From: Psammoneis japonica
Lineage: Eukaryota
Assembly: GCA_008632985.1 (NCBI GenBank)
Contig: QPGO01000079.1
Coordinates: 1 to 64,000, forward strand
Direction: 5' to 3'
Length of the DNA stretch: 64,000 nt
In this document: positions 15,515 to 62,931 of the stretch, one piece after another
Layout of the letters: every line of letters begins with the position of its first letter
Position numbering within the stretch: the stretch's first letter is position 1
Program-made: the position numbers and the translations under genes
Notes under the pieces: model-generated
Seen by the model: the letters and a program-made list of their open reading frames with translations, nothing else
Told to the model about the DNA's origin: nothing
Database searches by the model: none

Positions 15515-15689
15515 CTTGCTGGATTTTTTCTTTCTTCAAGTACGTACGGTCGTCATCGTCCGCATTGAGCCTCGCGCCTCGCCCAAAATCATATCTTCAG
15601 GAAAAAAATCATTTTCTCCAATCTGGAATCAGCGCCTGTGCTAAAAGGCACTGTCTGTCTCCCGCCCCCCCCCCCTCTGCTGTACCGGT

Positions 15690-17200
15690 GAGGAGTGGGA
15701 TCGGTGTCTTGGACGGATCTGCACCAAGTGCCACCGAAAAAATCAACTGCCGACATCATGAGGTCCTCTTGCTGAAGAGCTCAAAGCCTGCTTGATCTGC
15801 TTCTGCTTGCCTGAAAGCTGCTTGTTTGTCAAAAATGAAGCTCCCAGTGCAAGAAAATCTGTTGTGGCCATGCTTGCCCATGATGCTCAATGGAAAACCT
15901 GTGAAAAACAGGTTCGTCATGCTTTTCCTTCCTGCCTGCCACACATGCACCACATGTGGTCACTGAGGCTTGTGCCAGTTGCTGGCAATGTGACAATGCA
16001 TTCCGACTCGAGCTTCCAAAAATGTGCAAAATGGGAGGGGAAATCACAGCAACCCACAAAGAACAAGCAACACACAGAATCCATGCAGGTTTTTGAACTG
16101 CTGGTGTGCAATGGACAATTCTGAGGTGTTCATGCTGTGTGAAAAAGGAGGAGAAAGTCTGCTGTGCATGTGCATTTTGTCTCTTTTGTTGCCGCAGTTC
16201 TCTCAGCATTCCCTGGGTTCTCCAACAAAGAGACCCCCAAACCATCAGTCTGCAGCTGGTGTGTCAGCAAGAGGCCAGTCATGCCAAGGCATCTTTTCAC
16301 TTTGGAGATGGGAGAGCTTGAAGTCTTGCTGCTCTCTTTCTCTCTTTTGGCTGGGTGTGGCAATGAAAACTTGGCTCCACGATTGAAGAAGCAATGCAAC
16401 TCATCCTGGAGTTGAAAATTGGGAGCTGAGCAGATGCTCCCAAATGGTTGGGAAGTGAAGGTGAATGATGTCAGTGCAAGATGCAACAGCATTGTGCACC
16501 CCCTCACAGCTTCTTGACATTTTGACCAACAAAACATGGAGCACACTCTGTCAAGATCTGCACAACACATGCATGCTGAGAGCCCCCATCAATGTCGCTG
16601 GAAATCCAACTGCTCCATTGAGGCAACTCATTGCACAGTGGATGGCAGATGTGTGGGAGAAGGTGCCAGGGGAACTTGCTTGAAGTCTCCTTCTTGATTG
16701 CTGGCTGCAAGGATCCAGCTGATGAGCCCAGCAACCCAATGTGCACGGCCATCGTTGAAGCTGAAACAGCAACGCAGTGCAGGGACAGACCAGTCAGCTC
16801 AATCTGCAGTGCAGCAGGTGAAGATGCCATTGCTGTGTTCAAGGAGCCAGAAGATTTTGGCGGAAGTGACGCAGGGGACAAGGGGGGGGAGGATTGATTC
16901 TGCAGTTTTTAAATTTCAGTTTCAGCATGATTTTATGTGCGGCAGTTTTGGCGGCACAAATCCCAGAGCTTGGGCAGCACTGGTCAACAATCTGTGCTTT
17001 TTGAAAATCTGTGCCTCTTTCTGCGGACCCCTGCATTGAAAATCTGTGCTGTCTGAACCGAAACCTGTGCCCCACAGATTTTTATGATGGGCTAATCAAT
17101 CACGGGCGCGGTGTCGCTCGCATCCATGCATGCGATGCACGCACGCACCAAGCTAGATTTTCATGCAGCACGCAAGACGCAAGACATACAAGAGACACCA
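15690..17200 (+). mobile_element. Hypermutated pogo/Tigger-like (DDE_1) transposase relic; TpA-depleted domain 1
   Basis: TALCTPSQLLDILTNK resembles the TxxxQPLDVxxN motif and PLRQLIAQWMADVWEKV resembles the C-terminal WxxxxW helix. No TA between 15686 and 16909. Confidence 0.6.
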
Positions 17201-30169: not shown

Positions 30170-32700
30170 AAGAACACCTCTCATTTCACAAAAAGACACA
30201 ACGCTCCACCGCCGTTGCGGTGGTGTTGCTACCTCCAACACTTTTGTTCTTACAGCGTGCTGTCCCTGCATTGCTGCCTCCTTAGAAACAACCATGTTAG
30301 TTTGCCATGTGCAAGTGTGGCCATGATGTCTTCCTTGTCCGCTGCTTCTTTTGTGTGTGGAGAAGCCGAAGATGTTCTTCGCTCAAAAGTGCCGTGGCTT
30401 TGCTGCTGCAAATGGCGCAGGTGCTTCATCATCGTTGATCCAACAGAAGCCTTGCAAGGAGATGGTGGAAACATCACTGCCTTCAACCAAATGACAAAAA
30501 CTCTTGCACCAAGAGCACAGACTCGAGCTTTGCATCGCGACACAGGACACCTTTTGTGTGCGACGTGGCAGGGCACCTGCACTTTGGCAAATGCAATGGA
30601 GCAGGAGAAGAGCAATGCCTGCATCAAATGTTGGCAATTCACAACTGTGGTGGCAACCTCACCTGGTGGGCTGCACTGAGAGGGGTGGGGGGAGCAGTGC
30701 ACTCCTGGACGAAACACAGCAATTCAGCAGCAGATTTGCTGCATTGAGCCAGCTCGAGCACCCTGTTTGTGGAGCCACCTGGATTGACAAAGACATTGAT
30801 CATCAAGGGCACAGCCCAAATCCCAAGCCAGGAACACTCTGTGATCATTGCTGGTGCTGTGCAACTGTGCTGCCCTTGCTTGGCATGTGAAGATCAAGAA
30901 CATCCAAAGAGACAAATGCAGAGGAGATGGCAGGTGAGTGCTGGGGCACATCATTTCATGACTCACGAAAGACCAAAGTTGTTGTCAGTTGAGTTGGCAC
31001 TGTTTTCTTTGTTGCCACTGTTCTTCAAGCTGACAGCATCACTTTTGACTTCTTTTTGCTTTGTTTGCTCCACCCCACTTGACCCAAGAAACTGGAAAGA
31101 GTGTGCACAGAATCACAGGGGTGTCTGTCACTTTTTGATGAAATCAGATGAGGAGCCATCCCCTCACCTGCAAAAAGGAAGGACTCATGATGGCAAGTGC
31201 ACCCACAGCACCTGCTTGAGTTGGCATGCAATGCAATGCTGTGTGAAATGGTCGGAGGCATCGACACAGCAACCCCATCACCCATCAGAGACATGTGTTG
31301 GCTCAACAAAAACAAATGAGTGTGGTGCAGAGGATCAGGCTCCAAGCTGAAAGCAGAGAGAAAAAGTCTGCTCACCTTGCAAGTTGCAAGCACCACTGTG
31401 GAGCTGAAAATGCAGCTGCCTGTGCAAATGGAGAGAGTCATCTTGCACACACAGACTGCTGTGAACAGCGCCCTTGCTCTCATGGCAAAAGCCATTCGCA
31501 GACATCTGAAAGAGATGTCCAGAGAAGAAAAAAAGAGGTGGGGGCTGAAATCTGAAATGTGGGCAGCCTGCTGGCCAATCATGACAAGGTTGCAAAAGAG
31601 CAGCAGCAGCAAAGAGAGCCCCATGTGCTGTTGGCATGATGTCCAGAGCTGTTTGACAGATGGGGGACCCCACTGTCATCGAGCCCACAACAAGGCTGAA
31701 ATCCAAAATTTGGGCATCCTCACCAATCATGACAAGGTTGCAAAAGAGCAGCAGCAGCAAAGAGAGTCCCATGTGTTGGCATGTCCAGAGCTGTTCAACA
31801 GATGTTTGGCTTGGCCCCTGCTGCTGTCGGCCTGCAACAAGCTGAGCCAACTGAAGAGCAGCAACGGCGCAACTCATCATCCCTCTCAGACAGCTTGTGA
31901 GAAGCAGCTCAGCAGAACACATGTGTGATTGCTTTGCAGAGAGCTAACAGCAACTCAATTGAGAGCTTCTTTGGCCAAGTGTGCACACCCTGCATGTTCT
32001 CCTGAGCCTGGGAGTGCTGCCAGCACTGTGTTTTCTGCAGTGCTGGTTTGGGCACACTCAACCAAGTTTCTTTCTGGTCAGATGGTGATCAACATCTCTG
32101 TCATTTTCCTTGTAAAAGGAAATTGCTTGATGAGATGCTCTGCGAGCACCGCCAGTGTGGCCTCACTTTGTGGGACCTGCCTGGAAGCCTGCTGCAAGAA
32201 GAAAAAAATCAGAGACAAAATGCTGGCTTGACACTCAGCGTGCCACACGACTCAGCTTTCAGACTGCAATGGTGGCATCTGCAATGGGAGTTGCCATCGA
32301 AGACATGATTTGCAAGTTTTCAGTTTTTTGCATGATTTTGTGGGTCGTCTCTGGTGGGATGAAACCACGCACAAACAAGTGGGTGGAAATGATGATGTTC
32401 AATGTCTCAAAGTCGTGCGACGCACACCCAACGTGCAGTGCAAACAACACAAGAATTCTCAGGAAGATTGCAAGTGGAGTCAGAGCACAGTGGGCCCTGC
32501 AGCATGCGGGTGGCTTGGGGAAGACATTCCCATTCCATTGCCCCGCATTTGGGCCCTGCAGCATGCATGTGCTGTGCGCAAATGAGTCAGGGCCCTGAGT
32601 GATGCCAGCTGCTGACTCCTCGATCACCTGTTGTTGCGTGCGTGGGTTGCGGTTCACGTTCATGTTTCTGCCCGCTTTTCCAACGTGGTTCGCACATGCA
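30170..32700. mobile_element. Unclassified hypermutated repeat relic; TpA-depleted domain 2a
   Basis: No TA between 30300 and 31944. Internal duplication at ~31575/~31722. ORFs are Tyr-free and Cys/His-rich in all frames. Confidence 0.55.
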
Positions 32701-32710
32701 ACTTTTCGAG

Positions 32711-35700
32711 CAAAGGGAAAAAAGTGTGTCACAAGTGTGTCAAGTGTGTCAGTGTGCCATGCCATCACGCAAACTCCACACAAACTGCGTCCGGGTGACA
32801 CACACTTGTTTGCTTGTGGGTGACACACTTAAAAACACAAGGGTGGCACACTTGCTGACACACTTTTTCACCGATTTGAATTGCCCCTGACACACTTGTT
32901 TTTCAATTTCTACAGCCCCCTTGCCGGTGCACAAACATGTAGAATGCACAACCAAATTGATGGCGGAAAAGGGAAAAGTGTGTTGTGCAATGTCATGCAC
33001 CAACGTCTGCGCAACCAGAGTTGGACTGGAGTTTTGTGTTTAATCCCGCTGATTTCCGCAGCACTGACCGCGTGGATTTCTACACTGTGCGTTGAATCCA
33101 CGCCTTTTCGCATGATGCGAACCACAAAACATCGAAATGGCAAATCGACGCCGACCAACAGGAGCTTCATTTCTTCCACAACCAACTCTTTCTCTCCTTG
33201 TTTCTGCTCTTCACCAAAACTTGACAAAAACTCTGGTCACACAAAGAAATTGACAGCACTCGTTTTTCTTTTGTGTCTGCCAAATTGTGCCCAGAACACT
33301 GTTTCCACAGGACTCTGGTGCAGATTTTGTGTGGAAACATTGTGGCACGTGGTTGTCACTAATTCTGCTTTGCCATTGGTGAGCACATTGATCCAGTGTG
33401 CTCAGAGCACTTGCACTGGTTGGAGAAAACTACAAAGAACACCAGCTGGGAAAAAGTTGGCTCATTTCTGCACCAACAAACTTTTCTCACAGCAAGCCCA
33501 GGCACCGGTCGCCGCCCCTTTCTGGAAAGCCCCCTGCTCCTCTCCTGTGCAGTGTCGTTCCCCAAGAGGCTGAGAAAGTTTTTTGTTCAGATCTGAGCCC
33601 AGTGCACAGCACTGCTTGGTGAGTTCCATCCACACTTTGCAGCTTCTTGCTGGTCTTTGCATTTTTGCAAAAAGGAAGTCTGACCCACCCGCCGGACGTG
33701 GCGGCCCAATTTTTAATTTTGACAGACAATCTCAACTCAAGCTTGTTCAACAATTTTTTTCTGCTGAAAAACATCATCAGCTGAGCCATGAGCACCTCCA
33801 AGGGTGAGCCTGAGGATGGGCTCACTCCCCCCCCACAAGCACAGCAAGGCTTCTTTGCTCAGTTTGTGCGGCCCAAGCTTTTGCTGGAGAGGATGGAGTT
33901 TGAGCAACGCCAAAGAGACCTGCTTTTGATGGTGAACAATGCAACTGGCACCAATCTTGTGCCTCCTGACCTTTTTGCGCCTTGGCCTGCTCCAGCTCAA
34001 GCCAGCTTTTCGCAAGTGCAGCCCAGCTCCAGCCAACCTGCGGCCCGCAGAGCTCAGGTGTCACAGCTGTTGCCGTCCTCCGTTGGCAGGAAAAGCACCC
34101 AATCACTGGGGCAGGCTCACTCTGCTGCCAAAAGCTTGCCCTCTGCCAAAGCTCCGTCTGGCACTTCAGACCTGGGCCCATTTGCTGCATCTGTCCCTGG
34201 CTTGTCCGACACCAACGTGGGCTTGCCCGAGTTCCCCAACTCCTCTCAAGTGCCAACAAAATTGCATTTCATGTCACTTGGTTACAATGTGCATTGTGAA
34301 AGTGTGGCGTTTGGTTGTGTGTTTGACTCAAGTGCAGCATCACATCACACCATGTGATGTGATGTGATGTGACATGACATTGTGCCACATGACATCACAT
34401 GGCATGATGTTGTGCCAAACAATGTGACCATTTTGTGTCATGTGATGAACTGCATGAATGTCAATTGTCTGTCTCAAGTTCTGCAATTTAGTTTGTGACA
34501 ACATTTCATTTTTTGGTGTCATGTGATGAGCTGCAAAATTGTCAATTGTCTGTGTCAAGTTGTGCAAAATTGTCAGCTGTCTGTGTCAAGTCATGCAATT
34601 TTGTTGAATGCAGAGCGAAGCAAATTCAGACATTGGTTCTGCAATTTTATCCAATGCTCACACCAGGTTAAATTGAAAATTTGCTCATCTCAGGTGAAAT
34701 CACGACACAATTCAAGCGCCATTGCATGCAGCGTGATGGCAAATCCAGACATGGGCTCTTCAACATTTAGCTCATCTCAGCTCATTTTAGGTTAAATTGT
34801 GACATGATGTTGACATGTTAAGTTGCACAATGTCACACGTGAACGAAGTTGTTGTGTGTTTGGCTGAAGTGCAAAATCATGTCATCACATGACACGATGT
34901 GACATGTCATCACATGACATCACATGACATGATGTGACATGACAAACATGGCATGACAACATGTGGGTGTAAATGCCGGTTTGGTGTTGACACATGAAGT
35001 TGCACAATGTCACACATCAAGGAGTTTCTGCACCATCACATGCAGCGTGAGATTTTTTCAGCCTTTGCCAGATCTGGTGGACAAGCCTTCATTGCGTTTT
35101 TCAATTCGGCGCGACTGCTTTTGTCCGGGGCTTTCAACACACAAACCTTCTCTCCTCCAATTCTCTCAAAACAATCCAACATGGTCACCTTTGTTTTGAA
35201 GTCTTTGTCGCTTTTGTGGTGCTCCTGAAACTCAATGTGGCCATGCCATGCCTTGGTCACAGCAGCTGCAGATCAACCTTTAAAAGGATTGGACTTGAGC
35301 TTGTCCTGTTGCTCGTCCTGCGGCTCGCACTGCTCCTCCTGTGGCTCGTCCTGCCTCTGCTGCTCGTCCTGCAACTCCTGCGGCTTGTCATTCTGCCCAT
35401 CCTCCCCATCACCCACCTGCTCATCTTCCTTGGGTTGGTCCTTGTCCCCGACGTGGTGCTGTTTGTAGTTCTTTGGATCCTTGAGATTTCCCTGGGGGGC
35501 AAGTCGGTGCGACAAAATGGCCTTCATTGCCGCCTGCTTTCTCCCTCCATGTTGCGCAACAATGGCATCCTCTGCTGCCGCCGGGCACCTGTTCCTGGGC
35601 TCATTTGCTTCAACAACAGCAACCTCTGGGAAGGCCTTGCCCCCGTGGCCCGCCGGTGCATCTTCTTCTGCCATGCTCTCATGACGGGATTTGTTGGGCT

Positions 35701-36488
35701 TCTTTCCTGTCTTGTTGCTCTTCTTCTTCCTGTGTTTCTGGGGCAACTTTGCCACATTTACGTTGTCAGAGCTGTCAGCAGCAACAGCATCATCAGAGGA
35801 ACTGCAGGCAGAGGAACCGTCAGTGTCCTCAGAGACATCATCATCCAAGTCGCTGTTTGGAGCCGTCTTCCTTTTCTTGTTGGTGCCCTCAGAGACATCA
35901 TTTTTTTCCCTTTTCTTCTGAAGACTCTTCAAGTGCTTCCTCCAGGCCTTGAAGTGCACACATTTAGGGCCATGCTTCTGGCAGCAGCTGGTGAGGGTGG
36001 TGGCTTTCTGGGTGGAACACTCCACCCCATGCTCGGCGGTGCAAGGCAAACAAATGCACTTGGCAGGTGTTTCCTCCACCATGCTGGGTGTCACCATGTT
36101 GTTTGCCCCACCTCCCATGGATGCGGCAAAACAACGGATTCCTCCTTCCCTCATGGAAGTCTTGACAGCTGCCTTTAGCGCACGAAAGTCATTCTTTACA
36201 CTTGACGACATCATGGTCTACCAACACACAAACGATGTGAATGTGAACTTGGACGGTGTGCACCGTAGTGGGTGGCCGCGCGTCAGTTCAGAATTCTGAT
36301 TGCATCGTGTTGTGGTGGTTCCTCTTCACACGCACACGTGGCGGCGTGTGCGGGCCTTCTGTCACTGGACGTCACCGTGACGTTGTTTTGATCGCATTGG
36401 ACGAAACGCGAGCAAAATTGCGCGTAAAAAATTGACACACTTGAGTGACACACTCGTGACACACTAATGACACACTTTTTTCCCTTTT
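32711..36488. mobile_element. ~3.8-kb TIR DNA element (MULE-like?), hypermutated; domain 2b
   Basis: Left end AAAGGGAAAAAAGTGTGTCA and right end TGACACACTTTTTTCCCTTT are perfect inverted termini, with multiple subterminal GTGTGTC/GACACAC repeats. TTCGAG lies in both flanks (degenerate TSD at best). Relic ORF 35273..36214(-). Confidence 0.7.
34336..34963. repeat. Two blocks of degenerate pentamer repeat (TGTGA/CATGA/CATCA), inferred ancestor (TATAA)n/(TTATA)n
   Basis: Blocks at ~34336-34430 and ~34878-34963 have period 5. Most unit variants collapse to TATAA/TATTA when TG and CA are reverted to TA. Confidence 0.75.
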
Positions 36489-42399: not shown

Positions 42400-45300
42400 G
42401 ACACAGGGTGCATGGGGAGTTTGGTTTTTTCTTTGTCAACTGGGGAATGTTTGGATGGATTCTTCTCTTCATTGAGGATGAAAAATGAAAAAATTCACCT
42501 GACACAACTAGACACCACAGGAGACAAAGCAACCATCTGCTGTGCTGTGCTTGAAACTGCTTGTGTAAACTTAGATCTGTGTTGTTCATTGTGGAAGCAA
42601 TGGAACATTGATTGTGAGAACCCATCTCTCTCTCTCTCTAGAGCATGAACGAGCTTGCCTTGTAACATGCATTGCAACATTTTCCTTTGTTCAAGTCTCA
42701 GCTTTTTCCATCCTGGTGGCATGTGGTGGGTGGAGATGACAAAATGTGGCTCACTTGATGAAATGAAAACTTCCAATTTGAAAGTCTGTGTTTCACAAAG
42801 CAGGTGGCCACAGCTTCCCTCCAAACAAAACTCCAAATTGACTTCAGCACACATCTCCATTTGTGTGTTGTGACAGCATCAACTGCAAGCAGAGCAACTT
42901 GTTTGTTCCACCCACACACAGCAACATTTGAGACACAGGAAGATGTTCAAATTAACTTTGATGCTTGAGCTGACAGAGTTGGGGCAAATTTCAAGCTTTG
43001 TCTCTAAATCAATGTCTGAGAGAAAAAAAAATTCATGTGAGCATGCATTTGAGTGATGAGGCCTGTGACAACTGGACATCACAAATGGCATCTTGACTGG
43101 TGCAACAGAAGCTGCTAAAAGCACATTGACAGATTTCAAAGATGGGAAAGGCAGAGCTCACAGACCTCACCAAAAGAGATTTGTGAGAGACTCTTGAGAG
43201 TGTTGGACACATGAAAGAGATTCAGAGCAATGGCTGCAGGGACAACACACTCACATTTGATGACACAAGCATGTGTGTGTGCTGTTTCAAGATGAGGCTT
43301 GGCACAATGCCATGCAAACATTGCATTTCATTGGGTCCAAAAGCAGCACTGTGAGTCAAAAAGCTCTGACTCCAAGCACTTGAGAAGCAGAAAGCATTGT
43401 GCTTGAAGCTTTGAACATCACAGACAATGCTGCCACATTTGCTGTTGTGCTCATTGGAAGATTGTTGGCTGTCAAAACAGGTTGAAAACTGTTTTCTCCC
43501 AAACAGGGAGAGAAACCATGAAAGGCTGTTCTGAAAATGACAAAATGGATTGGCAATGTCATGAAGGAACAAGACATCCAGCCAATCAAGGAGAGTTCAA
43601 CACATGTCACAATTCTTTGCTCCCTCTCTGTGCAAGTTGAGTCAGACCATTTTCTGGCATCAAAGCTGCCTTTTCTTGTTTCCAGCTTGATGTCAGAGAT
43701 GCAAGTGCCCAGCTCTCAACAGGTGGATGTGCCAACAAAATTTCCAGCAATGAAAGCCTCTCTCTGCTGGTGCTGTGCTTTTTAGAGTCATCTCAGCTTG
43801 CATTTTTCTGCTGTTGCCTGACCACCACCCATGGCCCTTTGCTCTTTGGAAGAACCAAGTCAAACAAGTTGCAAAGGAAGAAAAAAAGAAAGAAGAAAAA
43901 AAGAAGAAGAAGAAGAAGAAGGCAGCAAGAATCCCTGGCAAAGCCAGAGCTGCAGCCATTGAAAAGCTCCACCTTGGCTCTCAACCAAAGTTCACAGCTT
44001 CAAACAATTTGTTGCATGCAGCTGCTGGATTCTCTGTGCAAGCTGCACAGAGAATGACAAAGAGCTGCAAAAGAGCCTGTTGAATGATGAACATGAGCAC
44101 TTTGACTTTGCCTCTGCAGTGTGGCTGTGCAAGCCCAGCAGGGGGGCAGCAAACACCATGCCCACGTTGCTGGCCCACGCAAGATTGCAAGTGACAACAA
44201 CATGGCAGCCAACCAGCTGGAAGAAATTGAAGATGCAGAAGAGCAAATGTTGGAGAAGTTGGTGTGAAGTTGCAACTGTTTTGCCAGCTGCTGCACAGTC
44301 CACTCCCTTTCATCATGCTCACAGTGTCAAACATGTTCTCTCCTTCCAATGCTGCTGTGCAGCTGTTTGCAGCCTTCTTAAAATCAGTTGGAAAAGAAAA
44401 GGAAGGCCATGAAGAACAAGAAGCTAAAGCCTGCTGCCAGCTGCAGCAGATGGCGCTGAAGGGTGCACAGCCAGTGAAAAAGAGATGACTGTTTGCAACA
44501 CACAGCTGCCAATGAGAGCCAACGCATCACGGCGACGTGTTGCAGCCTTTAAATGTCACAAAGGGCGTGACAAAAACAACCTTTTGTCTGCATGCATGCT
44601 ACGTCATGAATTCACAGCGGAGTTGTTCATCTCGCAACCATTGGGCAGGAGGCCAGGGGTTCGAAACCCGAGTGGGAGTTGTCTGCAGAACGTTGGTCAC
44701 TGTCGAACGCGCAAAACTCTGTGCAGTTCTGTGTGTTCCTTCGTACGTACCCACACTGTTCCGCCAAAACCGTGCAGTGTCAGCACTCGTTGGTAAAGAG
44801 CCGCACGGACGCGTGACACATGGGGAGGAGTGCAATGTGCAGCTGCTGGTGAGAGCCAATGCATCACGGCGACGTGTTGCAGCCTTTAAATGTGACAAAG
44901 GGCGTGACAAAAACAACCTTTTGTCTGCATGCATGCCACATGTTGCCGCCATTGGCTCATGTGCACTCCCAGCTGGGAGGTCTGCAAGTGGTGCGGAAGA
45001 GGGCTCATGTGCAGCAAGCTCTCAGGACAGCACAACCTGGAAGCAACAAGCTTGAGCAGGAAATGCAGCAAAGCACAGCATCTTGAAAGGAGCAAAAGCC
45101 AACACTTCAGACCTGGGCAGAGCTTTGGACTGGAAAATGGTCAGCACAACAGCTGAAAAGCATTTTGAATTTTGGAGGTTTTGCTTGATTTTCAAGCAAA
45201 GGGCCAGCTCACTCAAGAAATTCCCTTTGCACAGGAAAAACAGTTTCAAGGAGAAGAGGAGGAGAGCATCACTGCAGATGTCTCTGAAACAACTGAGAGA

Positions 45301-47570
45301 TGGTTTGCTTCCCTGCACAAGAAGCCTGGACATTGCAGCACCCAAATTTTTGTGCAACTTAAAACATTGAAGCCCGCTCTGAGCCAAGAACCAATGTGAA
45401 AGAGCATTTTTTGAAAATGTTGGAAAGCAAACATCCACAGCAACTCAGTCAATGATTTTCATGACTCTGTGGCAAAAACAGCTTTTGAAAAGCACCAAAA
45501 GGCTGCCAAAATGGGAGCAACCATGAGGGCAAAAAGAACATGAGAAGTGTGTCATGCAAATTGAGTGCCCAGCACTGGGCTTTTTGCTGACATTGCAGGT
45601 GATGAGACTGGAGCCATTGAAAACAGAGACTGTGCTGAAATGTTTCTCAAAGAGATTCAAGACCTTGTGTCAGCGGGGCAGATGTTGTGAGATGAAAGAT
45701 TGAAAGCAACAAGAGTTCAAGTTTGAAGAACAACACACCTCTGGTGCCACCCCAGCAGAGAGCTGCCTGGAGCCACCAAGGTTTGGCTTTCTCCAAGACA
45801 GCCCAAGCATGACAAAGGAGGAGGTGCAGCAGTTTGCAACAAAGGTGCAGCTGTGAGTGCAAGCATCTGGATTGCCATCAACTCAACAATTGATTTGAAA
45901 AGGTGGGAATGTCTGGGAAAGCCTTTGGGCTGGGAGGGAGAAACCTGTCTTGGTGCAACAGAGAAAAACATCACAAGAATGAGTTGGTGTCCCAGCGCCC
46001 AAGTGTGGCAAGTGGAAAGCAGCAAGTGCTGCACGTGGACAGGCAAGCATGTGTCCTTTTTTCAAAGTCTCTTGTGCCATCTTTGACAGCTGGCCATTTT
46101 GTTTCATTTTCAAACAGCACCATCCACACCAGATTTTTGACTTTGACCGCAACTTGTGCCCTCTGTCTCAAGCCACACAAACACATCAAGCTTTGCAACA
46201 TGTGTTTGCAATGCCTTGCTGCTTTTTACAAGCAATTGTCTCATCTCCAACAGCGCCAGCCATTGGTGGCAAGGACAACTCTTGTGAGCAAACAGCCCAT
46301 GTCATGCATGCCAAAAGGTCTCTGTTCTCAACTTCTTGATCAGGCTGCCAGCACCTCACTGTGTTGGTGCACTTTAAGCTCTTTCCACCATTTGTGGTTT
46401 GTTGAGCTGACAGCACATGTGCAGACAAACCACTGCCACCACATGAATCTCTCAAGAGTTGGGGTTCATGAAGAAGCAATGATGAGTCAAAGAGCAGAGC
46501 TCAAAATCACAATGAATCGAAAAGCCCCAAAATGGAGTGCAGATGCAGCAGTCATGCCACATGCCCTCATTGTTGAAATTGGGGGGTGAGCTCAGCAAAT
46601 GTCTTTTTGACTCCATTTGCAGAGCTCTCTGTTTTGCAGGTTGCAACATGCACCAAGTTCTTGTTTCTGGAGCACCCCTGCATGCTGCGCGCGCAACTTC
46701 TTTGCCATGAATGTCAGCAAGATGCAGCAGAGGACTTTTGTTCACAATGGGTTTGCTTGCAGCTCTGACACAAGCCAGCCACTCAATTGGTTGGACCACA
46801 GGTGAGAGCAAATGTGCTTCCTCCCAGCCAGTCTGTTTGCACATGGGACAATCATTTCTGTGCCGACGCTGGTCTTTTTGTGTGTCACATTCTTTTTTGC
46901 AGAGACACTGCACCGCACACTGAGCCAACACATGCCAGCCACTCATCAACTCCAAACTGGTCAGCCAAAAGTGAGAGCACACAAGTTTTGTCCCAGCTGG
47001 TCTGTTTTTGCAGATTGGACAATCATTTCTGTGGTGACAGTCTTGTGCGCCACAGTTTTGTTTTTGCTTTTGCAGAGAGACACAACACACACTGTGAATG
47101 AAAGGCAAAAAAGAAACAAAATTTCTCACCTTGTGGATGGAGAGCTGATGCCACAAGTCCATGCCCTTGCTCCACAGAGCCAGCGGAACTCTCTCTTTCT
47201 TTAGAGGCTCTGTGTTTCCCAGCCAGCCAAGAGAGGCAAAAAAACACAAATCAAGGCGAGCAAACAGCAGCAGCTTGCCAAAACAAAAGAGCACAGAAAT
47301 GGGCATGCCATGCCCCAACAAAACTTTTGATTTGACTCTCGTGTCACACACCAAGAAGGGAGGTCATGCAAAGAGGCACACAACAATTTCTCTGTGGCGC
47401 TGGTGATGGAGAGCGCAGGGTGTGCAACAGGAGCAGTGCAGCACGAGCCATCACAAGCAAAGCAAGTTGCAGTGGATGCACTGTGCTCTGACTTGAGAGC
47501 AAATCATCGTGTCACAATCTCTCCCACAACATTTTGCACAGTGTGCACCCAATCTGTCAAACATGTGGAA
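42400..47570. mobile_element. Nested, unclassified hypermutated repeat relics; TpA-depleted domain 3
   Basis: About 20 TAs in 5 kb, with none in 45362-46226 or 46377-47201. Internal ~170-bp duplication (46801/46971) encoding HRNDCPxCK on the minus strand. Confidence 0.55.
44494..44940 (+). mobile_element. TRIM-like miniature LTR element with tRNA-like internal Pol III boxes
   Basis: 110-bp direct repeats at 44494-44603 and 44831-44940 (TG...CA in the second). Purine tract GGGGAGGAG directly before the second repeat, TGTT on both flanks, and internal B-box GGTTCGAAACC at 44658. Confidence 0.55.
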
Positions 47571-47766
47571 ACACAGTAAACAAACATTTCCCTCCAACAG
47601 CGCCTGTAAGTCGTCCGCATCTCCCTCCAACACCGTCCATCCGTCGGCGGGATCTGCATCTGTGTAATCAATCCACGTGGAGAAAGCAAGAAGATAGCAC
47701 TGCACGCATGCGCTCTCATCATCAACAAGAAATCAAGCAATCAAGCAGCAGCAAGTAGCCACCACC

Positions 47767-50329: not shown

Positions 50330-52000
50330 GGACTATCATGTTAGCATTGAAATGCATATGGAAACTGTTTTTTGGTGTCACCAATCGACTTGGCATAGTG
50401 TAGACACAGGAGAAACCACCCCATGACCCGTTGAATAATGGAATCCCCCCCACGACGGATCTGTGCTCCATGCCATCTCTAGAGAGGCTGCGACAAGTGA
50501 AGCAAGAGCCCTCATAAAAGGTCGGCTTGGCACTGCGGCCGATTCTTGAATCTGAGAATAGCTTTCCATCTGCACAGTTGGCAGACGGCATCCTGAAACA
50601 AGCCCAAGGCACCAGAGGAGCACCCTCCTTCAGACCTTGAGCCCCTGTGCTCAGCACAGGACCCTGTGGAGAGTTTGGGTTTGCCCACCCACCCCCTTGT
50701 GCAGAGCAGGGCTTCTGCCAAAAGCTCTGCCCCACAATGCTCCCAAGCATTTCCAATGTCGAGTTTGCTTCTTGGCGGTTCTTGGCTGGGATCCCAGAAG
50801 CTCAAGTTGGAGGCGGGGGCAGCTGAAGTGCTCACTCGAATCCTTGAGGGTGCCGCACTCCAACCTCCAACATCACTGTGGAGCTCACAGAGAACAAAAG
50901 GGAACAAAACTCTAGAGCATGTTGCAAAACTCAACAAAAGTCAACATGACATGACAGTCAATGTTGGACAGCAATCCACATCAACAATGTCCATGCTGAG
51001 AGTGTTCAAAAAGAAAGATCTCAGGGTGTCAGGAGTTTGTGAAAAACCGGGGCAACATGGCCAAGAGGCAACATGAGTCCAGGGGCAATGATGACAACAG
51101 AGCACACATGAGTGAATGTCTGCAAGCTTTGCCATCATCAATGTGTGACAATGGCATGATGCGGGGGCAAAGTGTCCATTTGACTGGATGACAGGGCTGC
51201 TGCTCACCAAGCGTTTCTTCGCTTGCAGCCGCGGCACCTGCAGCATTCAAGACAGTCTTTCGAAGCCAGGCACATTGTTGTGGCAGTCAAACAGTTCAAA
51301 AAGGGTGCACTGCATTGATGTTGCCAACACAGCAACTCCACCTTTGTGCACACATGCCTGAAGCAAGAACTCGGTGCCCCCGCCCTCTTTCCCGGAAGGA
51401 GTGGCACACTTCTGGAAATGTGGCAGACATTGCTGAGAGCCTTGAAGATGCACGACATGTTGGCTGACAAGAGCAGGAAGAAAGGCAGCCAATCTGTTGT
51501 TGAGGCAGCCCACAGCCCCACTGTTGTGTCCTTTTTCTTTCTTGTGACTCTCTTGCCATCCGCCGTTCCTCGCTCCAGCTTCCAGCTGACATTGGAGCAA
51601 ACAGCGACCTGGCAATCTCCAAAACATGTGTGCTGCCACGAATGAAGCCTCTGCGGGAATGTCCTCCTGTGGTCTTCTGTCCAGATCCACCTCCTCATCT
51701 TCATCTGGCACGTCAACCCCTCAAAGGGTTTGCTGCCAGACTCCATCGCGGGCGGCGCAGACTTGACGCTGCTGGATCATCGCCAAGCCAGCCCTCAAAT
51801 GGATGATTCTTTCCACACGAGGCACAGTGAATGAGGCCAATTGTGCAACGTTAAATGCAGAGACAGCGTCTTTGTGTTGTTGGCAAAACGTTCAAAACAG
51901 TGGAAGCGATGGCAGCAAACTGCCGCACCGCACAACAGGATCGAGGCGGCATTCACACCGCGACGCGAAGAAAGATTCAGAACAACATCGTCATCACGAT
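50330..52000. mobile_element. Unclassified hypermutated relic; TpA-depleted domain 4
   Basis: No TA in 50915-51851, a stretch bounded by CTAG and TTAA survivors. Lies between two genes of normal composition. Confidence 0.55.
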
Positions 52001-57154: not shown

Positions 57155-57429
57155 TATAGTTCTATTTGTTTCATCTCATTGGGAAGCCGTCGGTAAAAAG
57201 CATTTCTCATTTCGTCGTCGATGAGAGGTATGAGCTATCATACCCGGTGTTGGTTCACGCGCGGTGCGGTGGGGCGGTGGGGCCAAGGATATAAATCCTT
57301 GGGTGGGGCGGGGTCCAGAGCAGGGTGCCGCACCTGCATGCCCGTTCGTTCAAGATTCAAGATGTGGTCGCGGCGCGGCTCTGCTGGCTAGCTAGAGGGC
57401 CCTCTAGAGCCAGCCAGTTTAGCTCTAGA

Positions 57430-60400
57430 GGTCGTGTTCCTCACCACTCATGTCTTTCGCACGGTGCTCTCGAGTGTCGACACTGCTCTTGAACAAAGAC
57501 AATGGACCAGCAGAGACATGGATTTCTGAGCGCAGAGGTGGCGTGGCTCGCTTGTGTGAGATTTGTGCTGGGTTTGGTTTGTGTTTTGTCAACTTGAGTT
57601 CACTGGAGACCTGAGAAAAGGGAAAAATCAAAAAATGTGAAAGATGACATCTTGTGTGTTGTTTCTGCAAGTGTGCTGTAATTTGTGATGGCTGGGTGGT
57701 GCAAAATGGAGCAAGAAATGAAGCGATTCGATTCACTCCCTCATCTGCCAAATCATTGAGGACATCCAAGAATTTTCTCACCTTCGCCTTTTCCTGCAAG
57801 TGGCTTGGTTGTGGTGCTGACAGAGTTGGCAAAGATCTGCCACTGACTCTCCTGCAGCGGTGACATGGAGCTGGAGCCTGCAACAGCGAGCTGGCCAAGA
57901 TTGCTCCAAGCCAAGAATGCTCTGTCTTTGCTTGTTGTGTTTGTGACCAACGGTTGGGGGGCATTTGTGAGGAAACTCACAGAGAGTTTTAGGCATGGGA
58001 GATCCTTTGTGGCGCCATTTCTCTGCACTCGTTCTCAAAGTTTGACACATGGGTGGTGTCAGATGGAGTCAAAAGCCCACATGCTGGCACAAAATGTGCA
58101 ACGTTTGATTCACTCCACTCACTCAAAAGTGCCATGATGATCAAATTCACTCCTGCAATTTCCGTTGCAAGCCTGACCCATTTTCCAGCCAAATGATTGG
58201 GGTGTCATGCCGCCATGATTTGTCATGTGGCTGCATTTGGAGGTGCGCTGTTGCTGTTTTTTGCAACAAAAGTTGAGCAAACATTGAGCCATTTCCGGGC
58301 TTCCACAAAACTCATGATGCTGCTGAATCACGCATCACCTCCAACCCAGCTGCCTTCTTCCTTCCTTCACACAAGCTTGCTCCACTTGATGCAACATTTC
58401 AGCTGCATGCACAGGTGTGCTGGAACCATCCTTGGGGAGACTGGGCTGTTTGCGCCGGAGCTTCTTCCTTTGCTGATGTTTCTGCAGCTGAGCAGGGTCG
58501 CTGTGCACTGCCAGGATGCCAACAGTGCACTCGGTCTGCCCCGAAGCATGGTTTAAAGAGGCGCAGGCTTGCAGGGCTTGTTCATGCAATTTAGAAGCCC
58601 CTGCCCAACTTCAATGTCTTTGGTCTCCAGCCAGACATTGGCTCATCTAACAGCAGCAAAAAAATCATTTTTGCACCACATGAATGCCAAAAGGCAGTGT
58701 TTCATGGCAACCACAAGGGCTGGACAAGGCCCGACAATGACATCTTCTCTCAATGATGCAGGCACACACCTTCTTCCACTTGCTTGCATGCCACACAGCC
58801 TCCTTTTTGGTGATTGGCAGCACCTTGTGCTCATGTTGCCTGCACCTCCTTAGAACTCTGAAGCTTGTTTTTTCAGCACTCCTGTGCATGTGCGTGTTGT
58901 GTTTTTCTGCACAAAATGGTCACACCCCCCTGGGCATTTTTGGTCAGAGGCTGCCAAGATCTTTCACAAACTGTTTCGTGGCAATGTCAACAGGAGTGTG
59001 CTTTGTGCAGGCAGCCATGCAGCAGCCTGGTTCTGCCATGTCAATGACAGCTTTGTCCCAGCAATGACATTTCATGCCCATGTTGTTCGCATCGAGGACA
59101 CCTTGAAAGTGCGGATGAGAGCAAATCTCTCAAAGAGACACTTTGGTCATGATTCGATGGCACAGACGGTGAGTTGCTGGGTGAGAATCACTGCCGCACA
59201 TTGCAGAGATTGCAAAATGGTGTTTGTGAGAGAGAAGCAATCCAGTCTGCGACAATGTCCGCAATTTTTTGATTGTTGTCATCCACAATCTTGACATCAC
59301 TTTCACACTTAAAAAAGGATTTGGCTGGGGACTTGAAGATGAGCCGCAACTGGGGTCATGGGCTTGAAAATTGAATTTGGGCCACAAGTGCCAAACCACA
59401 GGGTGATCTTCTTTCAGGAGCACTCTTTCAGTTTAGGAGCAGGCTTTGTCAACACATGATCAACAGCATCATCACCCGTTGCAGACTCCAACTCTTAGAA
59501 TCCCACAGCTCTGTTCCGCCCTTCCTCGTCCTCTCTTGTCACCACACCATTGTCATCTTCCATCATTGACACCTCACGCAGCCACCCCCATCGTGCTGTT
59601 GAAACAAACACCTTGTTGCCTTTGATCAAACCAAGTCAAGTGCTGTTGGGAGGACGGAATGACACTTCTCGTGGCAAACGAAATCTCGCACACTGAGCCA
59701 CCTGAACACCATGCTTCAACGCAACAAAATCTCCCACAACAATGACGAATCCTTGCGCGGACACACTTTCATCGGTTGCACAGATCCTTCTGACCAGTGG
59801 GTCATGGGACTTTGAAAAAGTGGGCGCATGGATTTCCAGCCCATCCGCCCAAAATGTGTTGCTGCCCCATCACGCAGCGCACCTTCTGGCACTTTTCCAA
59901 TGACGAGAGCACAAGTTCAAAATCATCAACGGCGAAAATGGCGCTTGTCTCGGCGATGCTCGTTTCAAAGACAATCGTCTTGATGCCACCAGCAACCCCT
60001 GTCCTGTGACTCATGTGTGTGGCTTGTGGCACTGTGGCGAGAAAATCAAGTGTGTTGAGTTGCAGTTGTGTGTCTTGTGGTGCAGCATTGTGTTTTGATG
60101 CTTTTTGGGTGTGTTGTTGCCTGACCTTGTCTTGCTCATGGTTCTTTGTTTCGTCTCATGTTCCAGAGCAAGGTGCTGACATGTTCTGTCATTCGCGCCA
60201 TTGATGTGTTGTGAGTGAAGTGGATTGAGCTGTGTGGATTGTGGGGTCGACCTCGGTGACCAGCACTGCTGGTCAATCTGGGGTGCATGAGGAACCGCTT
60301 CTGGTCATTTGTTCGAGACAGCCAGACTTGGAACACAACAAAAACACCTGCGCTGGCTTGTGTGCGACAATTTTGGGCCATGATTGCGTGCTCAATTTGT

Positions 60401-61880
60401 TTGGTCATGTGTCCTTGGAGTTGAGCATGATCAATCTCTCGCTCGTCCTCGTTGTTGGACAAGTTGGTGCCGCTTTCTGGTCGTTTGTTTGAGATGGCCA
60501 GACTTGGAACTCAACAAAAACACCTGCACTGGCTCATGTGCGACAATTTGGGGCCATGATTGCGCGACCAATTTGTTTGGTCATGTGTCCTTGGAGTTGA
60601 GCGTGATCAATCTCTCACTCGTCCTCGTTGTTGGGCGCGTTGGCGCCGCTTTCTGGTCGTTTGTTCGAGATGGCTGGACTTCTGACTCAACAAAAACACC
60701 TGGACTGGCTCATGTGCAACAATTTTGGGCCATCATTGCGTGCTCAATTTGTTTGGTCATGTGTCGCTGGAGTTGAGCGTGATCAATCTCGCGCTCGTCC
60801 TCATTGTTGGGCACACTGGGACCGCTTTCCAGTTGTTTGTTCGAGATGGCTAGACTTGGAACTCAACAAAAACACCTGTGCTGGCTCACATGCGACAATT
60901 TTGGGCCGTGATTGCGTGCTCAATTTGTTTGGTCATGCATCCTCAGAGTTGAGTGTGATCAATCTCTTGCTCGTCCTTGTTGTTGGGCGCATTGGTGCCA
61001 CTTTCTGGTTGTATGTTCGAGATGGCTAGACTTCCAACTCAACAAAAACACTGGGCTGGCTCACACGCGACAATTTTGGGCCATTGTTGCGTGCTCAACT
61101 TGTTTGGTCATGCATCATTGGAGTTGAGTGTGATCAATCTCGTGCTTGTCCTCGTTGTTGGGCGCACTGGGACCGCTTTCTGGTTGTTTGTTCGAGATGG
61201 CTAGACTTGGAACTCAACAAAAACACCTGGACTGGCTCGCGTGCAACAATTTTGGGCCGTTGTTGCGTGTTTTCGATGCCTCTTCTTGGAGCCAAACAAG
61301 AACACCTGGGTTGGCTTTCATGGAACATGTTTGGACGACATTTGTGTGCTTGATTCATTTGGTCATGTGTCCTTGGAGTTGAGTGTGATCAATCTCGCGC
61401 TCATCCTCGTTGTTGGGTGCGCTGGAGCCGCTTTCGCGTCAATTTTGTGGTGTGTTTCTCCCTGGAATGGCCATTTTGCGCCTGGATTGGCTTGCACGCA
61501 ACAACTTTGGACTCTCACTGTGTGTTTGGATCATTCAGTTGTGCGTCCTTGCAGTTGAGCCGGAGTGCGAAACTTTGTCGGATGGTTTGAAAGCGGGGCA
61601 AGACGCGGAGGTTTTCTGTGGCATGTGGCTTGCAATTGCATTGCAGCCCAATTTGTGTGCTTTGTCAACATCAGCAAGGAATTGCTCAGCTCTGCTGCAT
61701 GGCAGCTCATCGCATTTTGCCTGTCTCTGCTGGCCATTCGCGTGGTCGGGATGATTTTTTAGCCGCGATGCGCCCTGTTTCGCAACGCGCGTGCTGAGGT
61801 GCGTGTGCCCACTTTTTCCAAAGTCCCCCAACCCATTCCATCTCCATGCTGTGCTGCAAACATGTCAGTGACGGAGTTAA
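57430..61880. mobile_element. Unclassified hypermutated relic; TpA-depleted domain 5
   Basis: About 14 TAs in 4.4 kb, none in 59498-60850. Begins after a CTCTAGAG doublet and contains a 176-bp tandem array. Confidence 0.55.
60295..61440. repeat. 176-bp tandem repeat, ~6.5 copies
   Basis: Units start at 60295, 60470, 60646, 60822, 60998 and 61173. Many differences fall at TG/CA/CG/TA sites. Confidence 0.95.
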
Positions 61881-62006
61881 ATGTCAAATGATGAACATAG
61901 AACTTACACAAAAACGCATTGAACTCAACAACGTACTCACTAACACATGCAGTAGCCAGCAGAGGGCCCTGCAACAGCCACTTTTCCTTTCTATGTCTGC
62001 ATTACC

Positions 62007-62259
62007 TTCATCGTGGAACCCCGCAAATACGCGGGGACCTGTAACCCGGAAATGCGTAGAGTTGTACGTGCATGTGTGGGGACTATTTGCGCAGGTTTTG
62101 TACCAGAGCTATCTCGCGAACTAGGCGTTTTTTCGAAATTTTTTCGTAGAAACTGTACCAGTTTTGCGTATGTAGGCTACATGTTTCAGTACCACATACA
62201 AAAATGAGCGTAGACCTCTACAGGAGGGTCCCCGCGTATTTGCGGGGTTCCACGATGAA
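62007..62259. mobile_element. 253-bp MITE-like element with perfect 33-bp inverted repeats
   Basis: TTCATCGTGGAACCCCGCAAATACGCGGGGACC (62007-62039) and its exact reverse complement (62227-62259). Confidence 0.7.
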
Positions 62260-62380
62260 CCTTCAAAGTCACGAAAAATCTTCACCCCACACCCCACACC
62301 ATCGTATCTTCTTGCGATGATTTTACCCTTTCTCCTCTTCATAACAACACCGTATTTTTTTTTCGCCCCTTCCGTTCTCC

Positions 62381-62931
62381 ATGTCGACTGCTACCGAATC
62401 CACCGAACAACCGACCCTCACAATTCCGTCTGCTGAATTTACACAATACTGTATTGCAACGACTTCCGTTCGGAATTTAGTTACGTGTACTCCCGCTATG
62501 CACTATCGAACCAACAAAGGACGTGGACCACAAGCGAAGCTGTACCCTTGGCCCGGCGTATCTTTCAAGAAGCAAACGATGCCGAGAAATTGGTGACTAC
62601 TCTCCGTTCCATGGCCGACGAGATCGAAGAACACGCTGTCTATATGAAATTGGACTTCATTCGGCTCGCAGAAAAAGCATACGCCGACACAACTTGCAGC
62701 GATTGTTCGGCCAGCCTCTCGGTTCGAAACTGCCGCCTCTGCTTCAATTGCGGCACCCCCTTATGCCGCCGTTGCATGCTTGACTGCGAACAGTGCGATA
62801 ATGCAGAACGCGGCTCTGTCTTGTGCAGATCGTGCTGCCCGGGAATCGATCCCGGGAATGAAGCCTGCAAATGGTGCATTCACCACACGAAGACATTCCA
62901 GCAAGAGCAAGCCGACTACGGCAGTTATTGA
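62381..62931 (+). CDS. Hypothetical Cys-rich (CxxC repeat) protein
   Basis: Multiple CxxC pairs in 62485..62931. The ATG at 62381 is in another frame (short intron or frameshift). Confidence 0.5.

Follow-up and report, generated by a model that had tools for sequence, protein, structure and literature searches.

A 176-bp tandem array in a diatom genome as a possible record of regional TpA and CpG conversion to TG/CA

How could one and the same dinucleotide of a tandem repeat come to read TA, CA and TG in neighbouring copies? This question is raised by a 176-bp array from Psammoneis japonica, which was analysed within a window of 64,000 nucleotides representing the whole stretch of DNA under study. 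TRF reports a repeat of period 176 with 5.6 copies and 87% matches at 60295-61269, to which two degenerate units can be added on the right. The units and the nearest ORF are as follows (a strand is assigned to the ORF only):

60295..61269, core 176-bp tandem array (TRF, self-BLAST, alignment)
60295-60470, core array unit U1
60471-60646, core array unit U2
60647-60822, core array unit U3
60823-60998, core array unit U4
60999-61173, core array unit U5, 175 bp
61174-61269, partial core unit U6, unit positions 1-96
61270..61560, degenerate units U7 and U8 (BLAST and alignment; served as outgroups)
61270-61428, U7, ~78% identical (BLAST match 61295-61435 at 78.7%)
61429-61560, U8, very diverged (weak BLAST match 61481-61524)
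59802..60014, minus strand, 70-codon ATG ORF, possible gene only, immediately left of the array

The first-pass annotation had placed the array at 60295..61440. Its start agrees with TRF, whereas its end lies inside the degenerate part, and the array reaches ~61560. Head-to-tail copies of one non-coding unit bear out the assignment to the tandem repeat class (minisatellite/satellite). The period of 176 is not divisible by 3, the array contains short ORFs only, and a Pfam search of these ORFs returned no match. A non-coding, intergenic 176-bp tandem duplication in a diatom genome is the best explanation of the element. Its core comprises 4 TA, 48 CG, 125 TG and 73 CA dinucleotides.

The motif GC..GACTT is matched six times in the array, each time enclosing one variable dinucleotide (no strand assigned):

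60323..60324, site in U1, CA
60499..60500, site in U2, CA
60675..60676, site in U3, TG
60851..60852, site in U4, TA; ends a 1355-bp TA-free gap begun at 59496
61027..61028, site in U5, TA
61202..61203, site in U6, TA

The motif search thereby reproduces all six states given in the first-pass annotation. CG is present at this site in no unit, and the outgroup units U7 and U8 both read TC. A column survey revealed that TA is otherwise absent from the repeat unit. The three TA copies do not count as independent observations, because U4-U6 are adjacent units that have other states in common.

The additional TG-versus-CA and CG/TG/CA columns that had been quoted for the array are likewise present in the unit alignment. 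The CATG-nn-TC column carries TG in U1-U3 and U7, CA in U4 and U5, and CG in U8; the CTTC-nn-AC column reads CTTCTGAC in U3, CTTCCAAC in U5 and CTTGGAAC in the remaining units; and GAG-nn-TGATC has CA in U1, CG in U2 and U3, and TG in U4, U5 and U7. CG, TG and CA all occur at six core sites. TG-versus-CA columns are in clear excess over chance, since 11/38 pyrimidine-purine (YR) column pairs are variable at both positions as compared to 4/111 other pairs (Fisher p=5.4e-5; YY 1/41, RR 0/30, RY 3/40). Transitions affect 32/88 YR columns versus 8/85 other columns (p=2.5e-5), while transversions are equally distributed (6/88 versus 6/85; p=1.0). Few transversions separate the units, with 22 transitions and 2 transversions between U2 and U4, 21 and 1 between U3 and U5, and 25 and 2 between U1 and U4. 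The stretch is present, as contigs, in a single DNA study, with no RNA dataset listed for it, and more than 100 contigs of the sequencing run concerned (X1) represent further copies that are 85-95% alike. In these copies 25 of the 29 transitions fall in YR steps, among the 40 differences listed, and changes relative to the window go both towards TA and away from TA. Five metagenome loci that share a conserved 21-nt motif with the unit were dismissed as chance matches, each extending over only 21-30 bases. Strand-coordinated deamination was also rejected as the source of states common to neighbouring units, U4 and U5 sharing both TG-type and CA-type states.

To describe the substitutions at the 38 YR pairs, a four-state model (CG, TG, CA, TA) was employed. 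Bootstrap values of the unit tree are only 51-86, and the groupings clash: transversions set U1, U2 and U4 against U3 and U5, whereas YR transitions set U1-U3 against U4-U6. Because of the weak bootstrap and these conflicting character sets, every model was fitted on two topologies. The history of the array is not tree-like, whereas the likelihood tests assume a tree. The rate of CG->TG/CA is 10.5-12 times the ordinary transition rate, and including this CpG effect raises the log-likelihood from -177.7 to -149.0 on one tree and from -205.4 to -163.9 on the other, i.e. by 29-41 units. Thus, the ordinary CpG decay suspected earlier is clear, and it is the source of most TG/CA variation in the array. 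The 12-14 sites reconstructed as ancestral CG retain this state in 0.45-0.52 of the unit copies, as compared to 0.95 for 16-17 ancestral TG sites, 1.00 for 7 ancestral CA sites and 0.27-0.50 for the 1-2 ancestral TA sites; in non-YR columns the majority base is present in 0.927 of copies.

For the GC-nn-GACTT site, a uniform prior yields posteriors of 0.89 and 0.98 for a TA root on the two trees. A prior taken from the window gives 0.76 and 0.955, and an array-like one, in which TA makes up only 3%, gives 0.44 and 0.90. With a fitted TA loss rate the posterior reaches at least 0.98. Hence TA is the favoured, best-supported ancestor, with a posterior of 0.44-1.0 provided that the prior allows TA, and the first base of U7 and U8 is T. 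The first-pass annotation had proposed an ancestral TA that mutated separately on either strand, a reading that is supported here.

Is TA lost faster than expected at such sites? A free TA->TG/CA rate takes values 18-47 times the ordinary rate and improves twice the log-likelihood by 10.1-13.5 (p ~0.0002-0.002), a tree being assumed. The gain is stable to a 0.5-1.5-fold change of the rate scale and still amounts to 13-15 when the GC-nn-GACTT site is left out. A model without TA creation reaches 7.3-10.0 at the fitted rate scale and 1.7-13.1 across varied scales; since it fits nearly as well, fast TA loss is not separable from rare TA gain. The array contains one ancestral TA site, two at most. 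By arithmetic, the TA/TG ratio of ~0.04 in TA-poor domain sequence corresponds to a loss over gain of ~25, in agreement with the array estimate. Paralogues of normal composition conserve TA slightly less than other dinucleotides (0.73 versus 0.76-0.86). That TA persists in U4-U6 sits poorly with a loss rate that is high at all times; the process may be episodic.

The surroundings of the array speak to this question on a larger scale. The following domains are depleted of TA (no strand assigned):

57427..61877, TA-poor domain holding the array, 4451 bp: 14 TA, 151 CG, 535 TG, 408 CA
30299..36175, TA-poor domain, 5877 bp: 23 TA, 129 CG, 662 TG, 628 CA; 1647-bp TA-free gap inside
42510..47576, TA-poor domain, 5067 bp: 20 TA, 54 CG, 529 TG, 595 CA; broken by an island with CG and TA at ~44470-44948
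15684..16909, TA-free domain, 1226 bp: 0 TA, 16 CG
50560..51851, TA-poor domain, 1292 bp: 1 TA, 32 CG

Together, the five domains contain 58 TA where ~666 are expected, and the longest TA-free gaps measure 1647, 1355 and 1227 bp as compared to a mean gap of 27 bp. A scan of 64 one-kb windows, using the thresholds applied to Bigelowiella natans, flagged 18/64, of which 16 lie in 3 runs (6, 6 and 4); 0/20000 permutations matched 16 windows in clusters. In flagged windows the observed/expected ratios are 0.093 for TA, 0.396 for CG and 1.716 for CA+TG. Outside these windows the CG ratio is 0.980, and the array core has a value of 0.80. The share of YR steps (0.244 versus 0.242) and GC content (0.490 versus 0.484) remain constant, and 400-bp windows show a bimodal distribution of the fraction of YR steps that are TA or CG. 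The domains are thus shown to be sharply bounded and poor in TA and CG, with GC content and YR-step frequency unaltered. Low TA and CG combined with high TG and CA at constant GC and YR-step share are as expected from conversion of TA and CG by transitions, and composition points to TG/CA as the direction of change. As the array resides in a nearly TA-free domain, TA loss appears as a regional process rather than an oddity of one site.

A Pfam scan of 123 domain ORFs (>=80 codons) yielded 0 matches above the cut-off and 4 sub-threshold ones, and thus no sign of the foreign origin known from Bigelowiella natans. Membership in the B. natans type becomes less likely by this result, which is still compatible with a similar mechanism, as strong mutation could mask a foreign origin of the domains. 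Matching by purine/pyrimidine only across the window, in search of mutated/unmutated element pairs, recovered known repeats only. A simple-sequence origin was discarded, the compressibility of the domains (0.29-0.335) being that of complex sequence (0.31-0.32 in normal parts). A T-arm-like motif near 44650 was not confirmed as part of a tRNA; ARAGORN finds none anywhere in the window.

We propose, with a probability of roughly 0.55, that the array records a regional, context-specific transition process turning TpA and CpG into TG/CA. According to this model, both self-complementary pyrimidine-purine dinucleotides would be converted to TG/CA in certain kilobase-scale domains. CpG would be lost through C->T on either strand, and the CpG rate excess is most simply explained by deamination of 5-methylcytosine, methylation at this locus being putative. 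TpA would be lost through A->G on either strand, appearing as TA->TG or TA->CA. GC-TA-GACTT would represent the unit's one ancestral TA, left unchanged in U4-U6 and converted to CA in the U1/U2 lineage and to TG in U3. On this view TA loss would be due to mutation and not to selection, and would resemble the TpA-only hypermutation of Bigelowiella natans; the putative agent is an adenine deaminase or, alternatively, the deamination of adenine in a modified form. A bolder version, which we regard as speculative and on balance rather improbable, is that diatoms, or at least this one, possess a regionally targeted DNA editing system that erases TpA and CpG from chosen domains. Both dinucleotides are palindromic, and in this version either could carry a heritable modification placed symmetrically on the two strands, 5mC in the case of CpG and conceivably a modified form of adenine in that of TpA, the deamination of each leading to TG/CA.

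The alternative that survives best, albeit an unlikely one, invokes chance in addition to ordinary CpG decay. Here, the TA site would have undergone two unrelated ordinary transitions, T->C on the lineage leading to U1 and U2 and A->G in U3, and the surrounding scarcity of TA would reflect rare TA creation or an ancestor that never had TA. This account profits from the base model, which favours a TA root already when TA is treated as an ordinary site, and from the model without TA creation, whose fit improves almost like that with fast TA loss. In addition, the array offers only one TA site, and paralogues whose composition is normal show no marked instability of TA. However, with ~11/85 other columns variable, simple arithmetic gives a probability of only ~0.02-0.04 that both columns of one TA site vary, and the signal of TA avoidance persists once that site is removed. 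Moreover, five sharp domains with so large a deficit of TA at a constant YR-step share need a TA-specific cause.

Selection in place of mutation we consider somewhat less probable still. TA and CG would be purged as harmful, e.g. as UpA/CpG in transcripts or owing to constraints of chromatin or DNA structure, and the array site would merely follow that pressure. Composition alone fits selection as well as mutation, and a deficit of CpG and UpA together with an excess of UpG and CpA is described for RNA viruses and cytoplasmic mRNAs in the available text of PMC3829696 and related work. In contrast, long-ORF sequence in the window retains CG (0.94) and TA (0.46), and TA-free and CG-poor stretches do not exactly coincide: 59577-59976 is TA-free, yet CG-dense, and the TA-free ORF left of the array lies within it. 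Depletion is also near-total across kilobases without recognisable function, and a mutational process of the same kind was directly measured in another alga, B. natans, according to the available preprint text.

That the site started as CG, which the first-pass annotation had named as the finding that would overturn its view, is very unlikely. CA and TG would then be single deaminations, and TA would result from one second hit that subsequently spread to U4-U6. The prominence of CpG decay, the 12-14/38 YR sites reconstructed as CG and the lack of TA elsewhere in the unit lend this idea some appeal, and where the root prior of one tree is fitted with TA=0, the posterior is distributed over CG (0.34), TG (0.39) and CA (0.27), but such a prior bars TA by construction. 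With any prior that allows TA, the CG posterior does not exceed 0.19, or 0.004 if the tree with the better fit is taken; in addition, the first base of U7 and U8 is not C, and CG is kept at the site by no unit. The faintest prospect is given to direct TG<->CA flips in one event (tandem double substitution or 2-bp inversion) that need no CG/TA intermediate: for three singleton TG->CA changes no unit shows an intermediate (columns 7, 24 and 121 of the alignment, 0-based), a flip rate of ~1 improves twice the log-likelihood by 6.4-8.5, paralogues from TA-poor domains differ at six TG/CA sites versus 4 CG/TG or CG/CA sites, and other copies show adjacent TG>CA or CA>TG pairs at 60018/19, 60086/87 and 62088/89, but flips leave the three-state site and the absence of TA unexplained, fit less well than fast TA loss (5.4 versus 13-15 with the GC-nn-GACTT site left out), and would look identical to a two-step path on which CG or TA exists only briefly.

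A regional process converting TpA and CpG to TG/CA can be compared with several known systems. In fungal RIP, CpA is converted to TpA, whereby TA rises and GC falls. Both show a burst of transitions within a region, transversions between the copies of a duplication being almost absent, and the process described here could likewise serve to degrade unwanted DNA. The sign is however opposite, as TA is nearly abolished (0.09) and CA/TG is elevated (1.72) at a GC content of 0.490 versus 0.484. If true, the bolder version of the proposal would constitute a two-armed, GC-neutral counterpart of fungal RIP that acts on spacer DNA, beyond viral inserts. The scarcity of CTAG in E. coli is attributed to very-short-patch repair, which converts T:G mismatches to C:G. 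The array site is C-TA-G as well, and its derivatives CCAG and CTGG reflect the same conversions, but in contrast to this bacterial, motif-specific repair bias, all TA is lost whatever its neighbours and in certain domains only. Studies of primate substitutions explain TG<->CA doublet changes in methylated genomes by a CpG intermediate. This route accounts for array columns that read only TG and CA; yet flips without CG exceed its prediction in the array, and the fit gains from adding either a flip rate or a fast route through TA.

CpG methylation in repeats via DNMT5a has been reported for diatoms (PMC9998398, as far as its available text goes). The CG->TG/CA rate excess of ~10-12, the sites at which CG, TG and CA coexist and the CpG observed/expected ratio of 0.40 in the domains resemble CpG decay driven by 5mC. 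CpG decay, however, lowers GC and leaves TA, whereas the domains have lost TA even more thoroughly, at a constant GC content.

Among known cases, the TpA-only hypermutation of B. natans comes closest, judged by the available text of the preprint by Mettrop et al. (bioRxiv 10.64898/2026.01.13.699255). There, A:T->G:C changes are targeted to TpA, yielding TpG or CpA depending on the strand, within integrated viral or other foreign sequences; the de novo mutation rate is raised regionally by orders of magnitude, and an ADAT2-like DNA-editing adenosine deaminase is a candidate agent (same preprint, same text). Conversion of TpA to TpG or CpA by strand would be shared with P. japonica, where the direction is suggested by the site and by composition, and the thresholds of that study are passed by the flagged windows reported above. 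Differences are evident, too. B. natans is a chlorarachniophyte, whereas the host here is a diatom (stramenopile), and depletion is far stronger, with an average Rho_TpA of 0.09 as compared to the 0.45 given in the available text for its giant-virus insert. CpG loss accompanies TA loss here, so that GC does not rise; the available preprint text mentions CpG 0 times. The spacers in P. japonica, unlike the targets described there, carry no recognisable viral or transposon domain and are at least partly single-copy. Finally, de novo mutations were measured in B. natans according to that text, whereas here the process is read from sequence composition and copies.

The literature searched contained no report of TpA-specific hypermutation or of TA-free domains in diatoms, and within it TpA-specific hypermutation is described once, in the 2026 chlorarachniophyte preprint. 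If mutational, the process would be present in a second, ecologically dominant algal lineage, in a far more complete form judging from the TA deficit and coupled to CpG loss, hence the constant base composition. Under the bolder version, TpA hypermutation would moreover be widespread among SAR algae and no peculiarity of one chlorarachniophyte. Tandem arrays like the 176-bp one would provide natural recorders for measuring it, and in such genomes the neutral evolution of sequences, their dinucleotide statistics, the finding of genes and mechanisms of genome defence would all have to be treated differently. Gene finding is affected in a simple manner: in TA-free DNA, TGA is the only possible stop codon, which gives rise to spurious long ORFs.

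The inference made in the first-pass annotation about a variable site of a 176-bp array points to something larger than was visible there: in domains of kilobase size, this diatom has lost TpA and, to a lesser degree, CpG to TG/CA. Window-wide observed/expected ratios (TA 0.43, CA 1.33, TG 1.32, CG 0.81) blend two compartments. Counted per 400 bp, TA plus CG make up a bimodally distributed share of the pyrimidine-purine (YR) steps, one mode lying below 0.15 and the other at 0.35–0.45. Thresholds taken from a preprint on Bigelowiella natans flagged 18 of 64 one-kb windows, 16 of them in three runs (30001–36000, 42001–48000 and 58001–62000), which was matched by 0 of 20,000 permutations. Mean observed/expected values were 0.093 for TA, 0.396 for CG and 1.716 for CA+TG in flagged windows as compared to 0.557, 0.980 and 1.183 in the unflagged ones. 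The fraction of YR steps (0.244 vs 0.242) and the GC content (0.490 vs 0.484) hardly differ between flagged and other windows, as expected if transitions, which leave the order of purines and pyrimidines intact, turn TA and CG into TG/CA, since GC gain at TA would then offset GC loss at CG.

TA-poor domains, with limits set by TA positions
15684–16909: 0 TA
30299–36175: 23 TA
42510–47576: 20 TA
50560–51851: 1 TA
57427–61877: 14 TA; holds the array

Together, these 17.9 kb contain 58 TA, where the TA density of the normal parts would predict about 666. Their sequence is complex and directly adjoins Pfam-supported genes; in a Pfam scan of domain ORFs of at least 80 codons, 0 of 123 reached the cut-off. 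Long open frames in TA-poor DNA at 35051–36217 and 46452–47363 (375, 314 and 303 codons, all lacking a Pfam match) are probably spurious, because without TA only TGA stops a frame. The extent of TA loss differs from that of CG loss, CG in the array still being at 0.80 observed/expected. The stretch at 59577–60014, which spans a 70-codon minus-strand ORF (59802–60014), is TA-free yet CG-dense (about 24 CG in the 400 bp of 59577–59976), indicating that the two losses are separable. By arithmetic on composition counts, TA/TG in the domains is about 0.04, which corresponds to a loss/gain ratio of about 25, and CG/TG, at about 0.17, comes near the ratio of fitted gain and loss rates. On the plus strand of 59927–61877, TG exceeds CA (skew +0.26 to +0.41 per 500 bp; 125 TG vs 73 CA in the array core), which may reflect strand-biased conversion; in the remaining domains, the two are roughly balanced or CA is slightly in excess.

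The tandem array (TRF: period 176, 60295–61269, 5.6 copies, 87% matches) comprises six core units and two degenerate ones, and no further copies of the unit were found elsewhere in the 64-kb window.

Units of the array
U1, 60295–60470: core unit
U2, 60471–60646: core unit
U3, 60647–60822: core unit
U4, 60823–60998: core unit
U5, 60999–61173: core unit
U6, 61174–61269: core unit, partial
U7, 61270–61428: degenerate unit after the core, about 78% identical
U8, 61429–61560: degenerate unit after U7

The first-pass annotation had read a GC..GACTT site as CA (60323, 60499), TG (60675) or TA (60851, 61027, 61202), and these states, one per core unit, were borne out, as were the other columns it quoted, which match their description in the unit alignment. 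The three TA at this site (column 28, counting from 0) and a T-to-A singleton at 61012 are the array's four TA and the only TA between 59496 and 61760.

Variation among core units is concentrated at YR steps. Of 176 columns, 54 vary, 40 by transitions only and 14 with a transversion. Transitions affect 32 of 88 YR columns vs 8 of 85 others (p=2.5e-5), and transversions 6 of 88 vs 6 of 85. Variation is present in 18 of the 38 column pairs that are YR in every core unit, and in 11 of these it affects both columns (TG vs CA), as compared to 1/41 YY, 0/30 RR and 3/40 RY pairs (Fisher p=5.4e-5 for the YR excess). CG is kept in a core unit at six of the 11 double-variable sites and in U8 at one more, leaving columns 7, 24, 121 and 28 without CG; the invariant pairs comprise 12 TG, 7 CA, 1 CG and 0 TA. 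Transversions (columns 35, 36, 56, 87, 119, 144, 173) separate U1, U2 and U4 from U3 and U5, with 1–2 within a unit type (4 for U1–U2) and 7–10 between types, whereas YR transitions (columns 11, 28, 66, 115, 131, 145) separate U1–U3 from U4–U6. U2 and U4 differ by 22 transitions and only 2 transversions, U3 and U5 by 21 and only 1. Since the two sets interleave, columns 144 and 145 being direct neighbours from different sets, neither a single tree nor tract-wise gene conversion accounts for the states of U1–U5.

A four-state model (CG, TG, CA, TA) was fitted to the 38 YR pairs on two rooted topologies, one adjacency-based and one IQ-TREE-derived, the latter fitting the whole alignment better; the 85 non-YR columns, where the majority base is present in 0.927 of copies, calibrated the ordinary transition rate. 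CG changes to TG/CA at 10.5–12 times that rate (log-likelihoods with vs without the CpG effect, −149.0 vs −177.7 and −163.9 vs −205.4). The count of ancestral fates proposed in the first-pass annotation was run on the copies inside the window.

Reconstructed ancestral states and fraction of unit copies keeping them
CG: 12–14 sites, 0.45–0.52
TG: 16–17 sites, 0.95
CA: 7 sites, 1.00
TA: 1–2 sites, 0.27–0.50

When freed, the rate of TA to TG/CA rose to 24–27 times the ordinary one, with a doubled log-likelihood gain of 10.1 and 13.5 on the two trees. Scaling the calibration 0.5–1.5 fold gave 18–47 times (p about 0.0003–0.0014), and with column 28 left out the gain persisted at 13–15, the rate estimate lying at its upper bound.

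Posterior of TA at the root of column 28
Uniform prior: adjacency tree 0.89, IQ-TREE tree 0.98
Window dinucleotide frequencies as prior: 0.76, 0.955
Array-like prior (TA only 3%): 0.44, 0.90
With the rate of TA loss fitted: no lower than 0.98 on both trees

A TA root was excluded only with a fitted root TA frequency of zero (adjacency tree). Both U7 and U8 read TC, so the first-base T is old; they say little on the second base, because their next two bases differ too. TA in U4–U6 counts as one retention, these units being adjacent and having other states in common. Of the readings considered for the site, the one originally suggested, ancestral TA with separate hits on either strand beside CpG decay, has the best support.

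In the one DNA run that contains the stretch (X1), 184 contigs match 59300–62400, and 107 are below 95% identity, so related copies of the array and of the flank to its left are present elsewhere in that genome. All differing places comprise 83 transitions and 25 transversions. Among the 40 differences listed (69 more lie beyond these), which carry no direction of change, 25 of 29 transitions fall within YR steps, 17 involving CG and 8 TA, including three adjacent TG/CA doublets. Between paralogues in the window, such doublets occur only within TA-poor domains (6 sites); paralogues of normal composition conserve TA at 0.73 vs 0.76–0.86 for other dinucleotides.

We favour, at a probability of about 0.55, a regional transition process with two arms as the cause. 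CpG decay, which the data show, is one arm; diatoms have CpG methylation in repeats via DNMT5a (PMC9998398). The window-encoded DUF6824/CRAL-TRIO and PRMT5 proteins have their closest named relatives among diatoms (best match of the latter, 64% identical). For the other arm, we infer A-to-G change directed at TpA. The closest precedent for this TA half is B. natans, where two integrated viral regions acquire mutations at about 1000 times the rate of the remaining genome in mutation-accumulation lines, nearly always at TpA and yielding TpG or CpA (10.64898/2026.01.13.699255); the preprint mentions neither CpG nor diatoms. Our literature search found no report of such TA-poor domains in diatoms. 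Competing one-parameter changes also improve the model fit, so that the array by itself shows TA avoidance and not its manner. Rare creation of TA is a less likely rival, a model with no TA creation gaining 7.3–10.0 at the fitted scale and 1.7–13.1 across scales. Selection as the source of the pattern appears improbable. An ancestral CG at column 28, with a posterior of at most 0.19, is quite unlikely, and direct TG/CA flips, which gain 6.4–8.5 at a rate near 1, are slightly less credible still.

Two segments of different composition touch TA-poor DNA. An island at 44470–44948 inside a domain has many CG and several TA and is flanked by direct repeats (44494–44602 and 44831–44939, 91–94% identical); it carries a T-arm-like GGTTCGAAACC motif, ARAGORN called no tRNA there, and a young insertion accompanied by a duplicated flank is a possible origin. 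At a domain edge, a 253-bp element (62007–62259) of normal TA and CG content ends in perfect 33-nt inverted repeats (62007–62039 and 62227–62259). Summing contigs of run X1 gives a very high depth there, about 1000–3300 vs 50–100 nearby, and the element appears to be a MITE-like insertion of high copy number.

Elsewhere, DNA of normal composition (10087–11877) has two inverted repeats, one of 55 nt (89% complementary) and one of 46 nt (80%), at a spacing of about 1.5–1.7 kb; they may be the termini of a DNA transposon. An 84-bp tandem repeat (3373–3779, 4.1 copies, 94% matches) lies in a 606-codon open frame lacking a Pfam match and, 84 being a multiple of 3, probably corresponds to a repeat in the encoded protein. 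Finally, 11872–12295 and 25671–26090 are 82% identical at 13.8 kb distance, duplicating part of a 946-codon open frame (23237–26077); the former is probably a gene fragment or paralogue.
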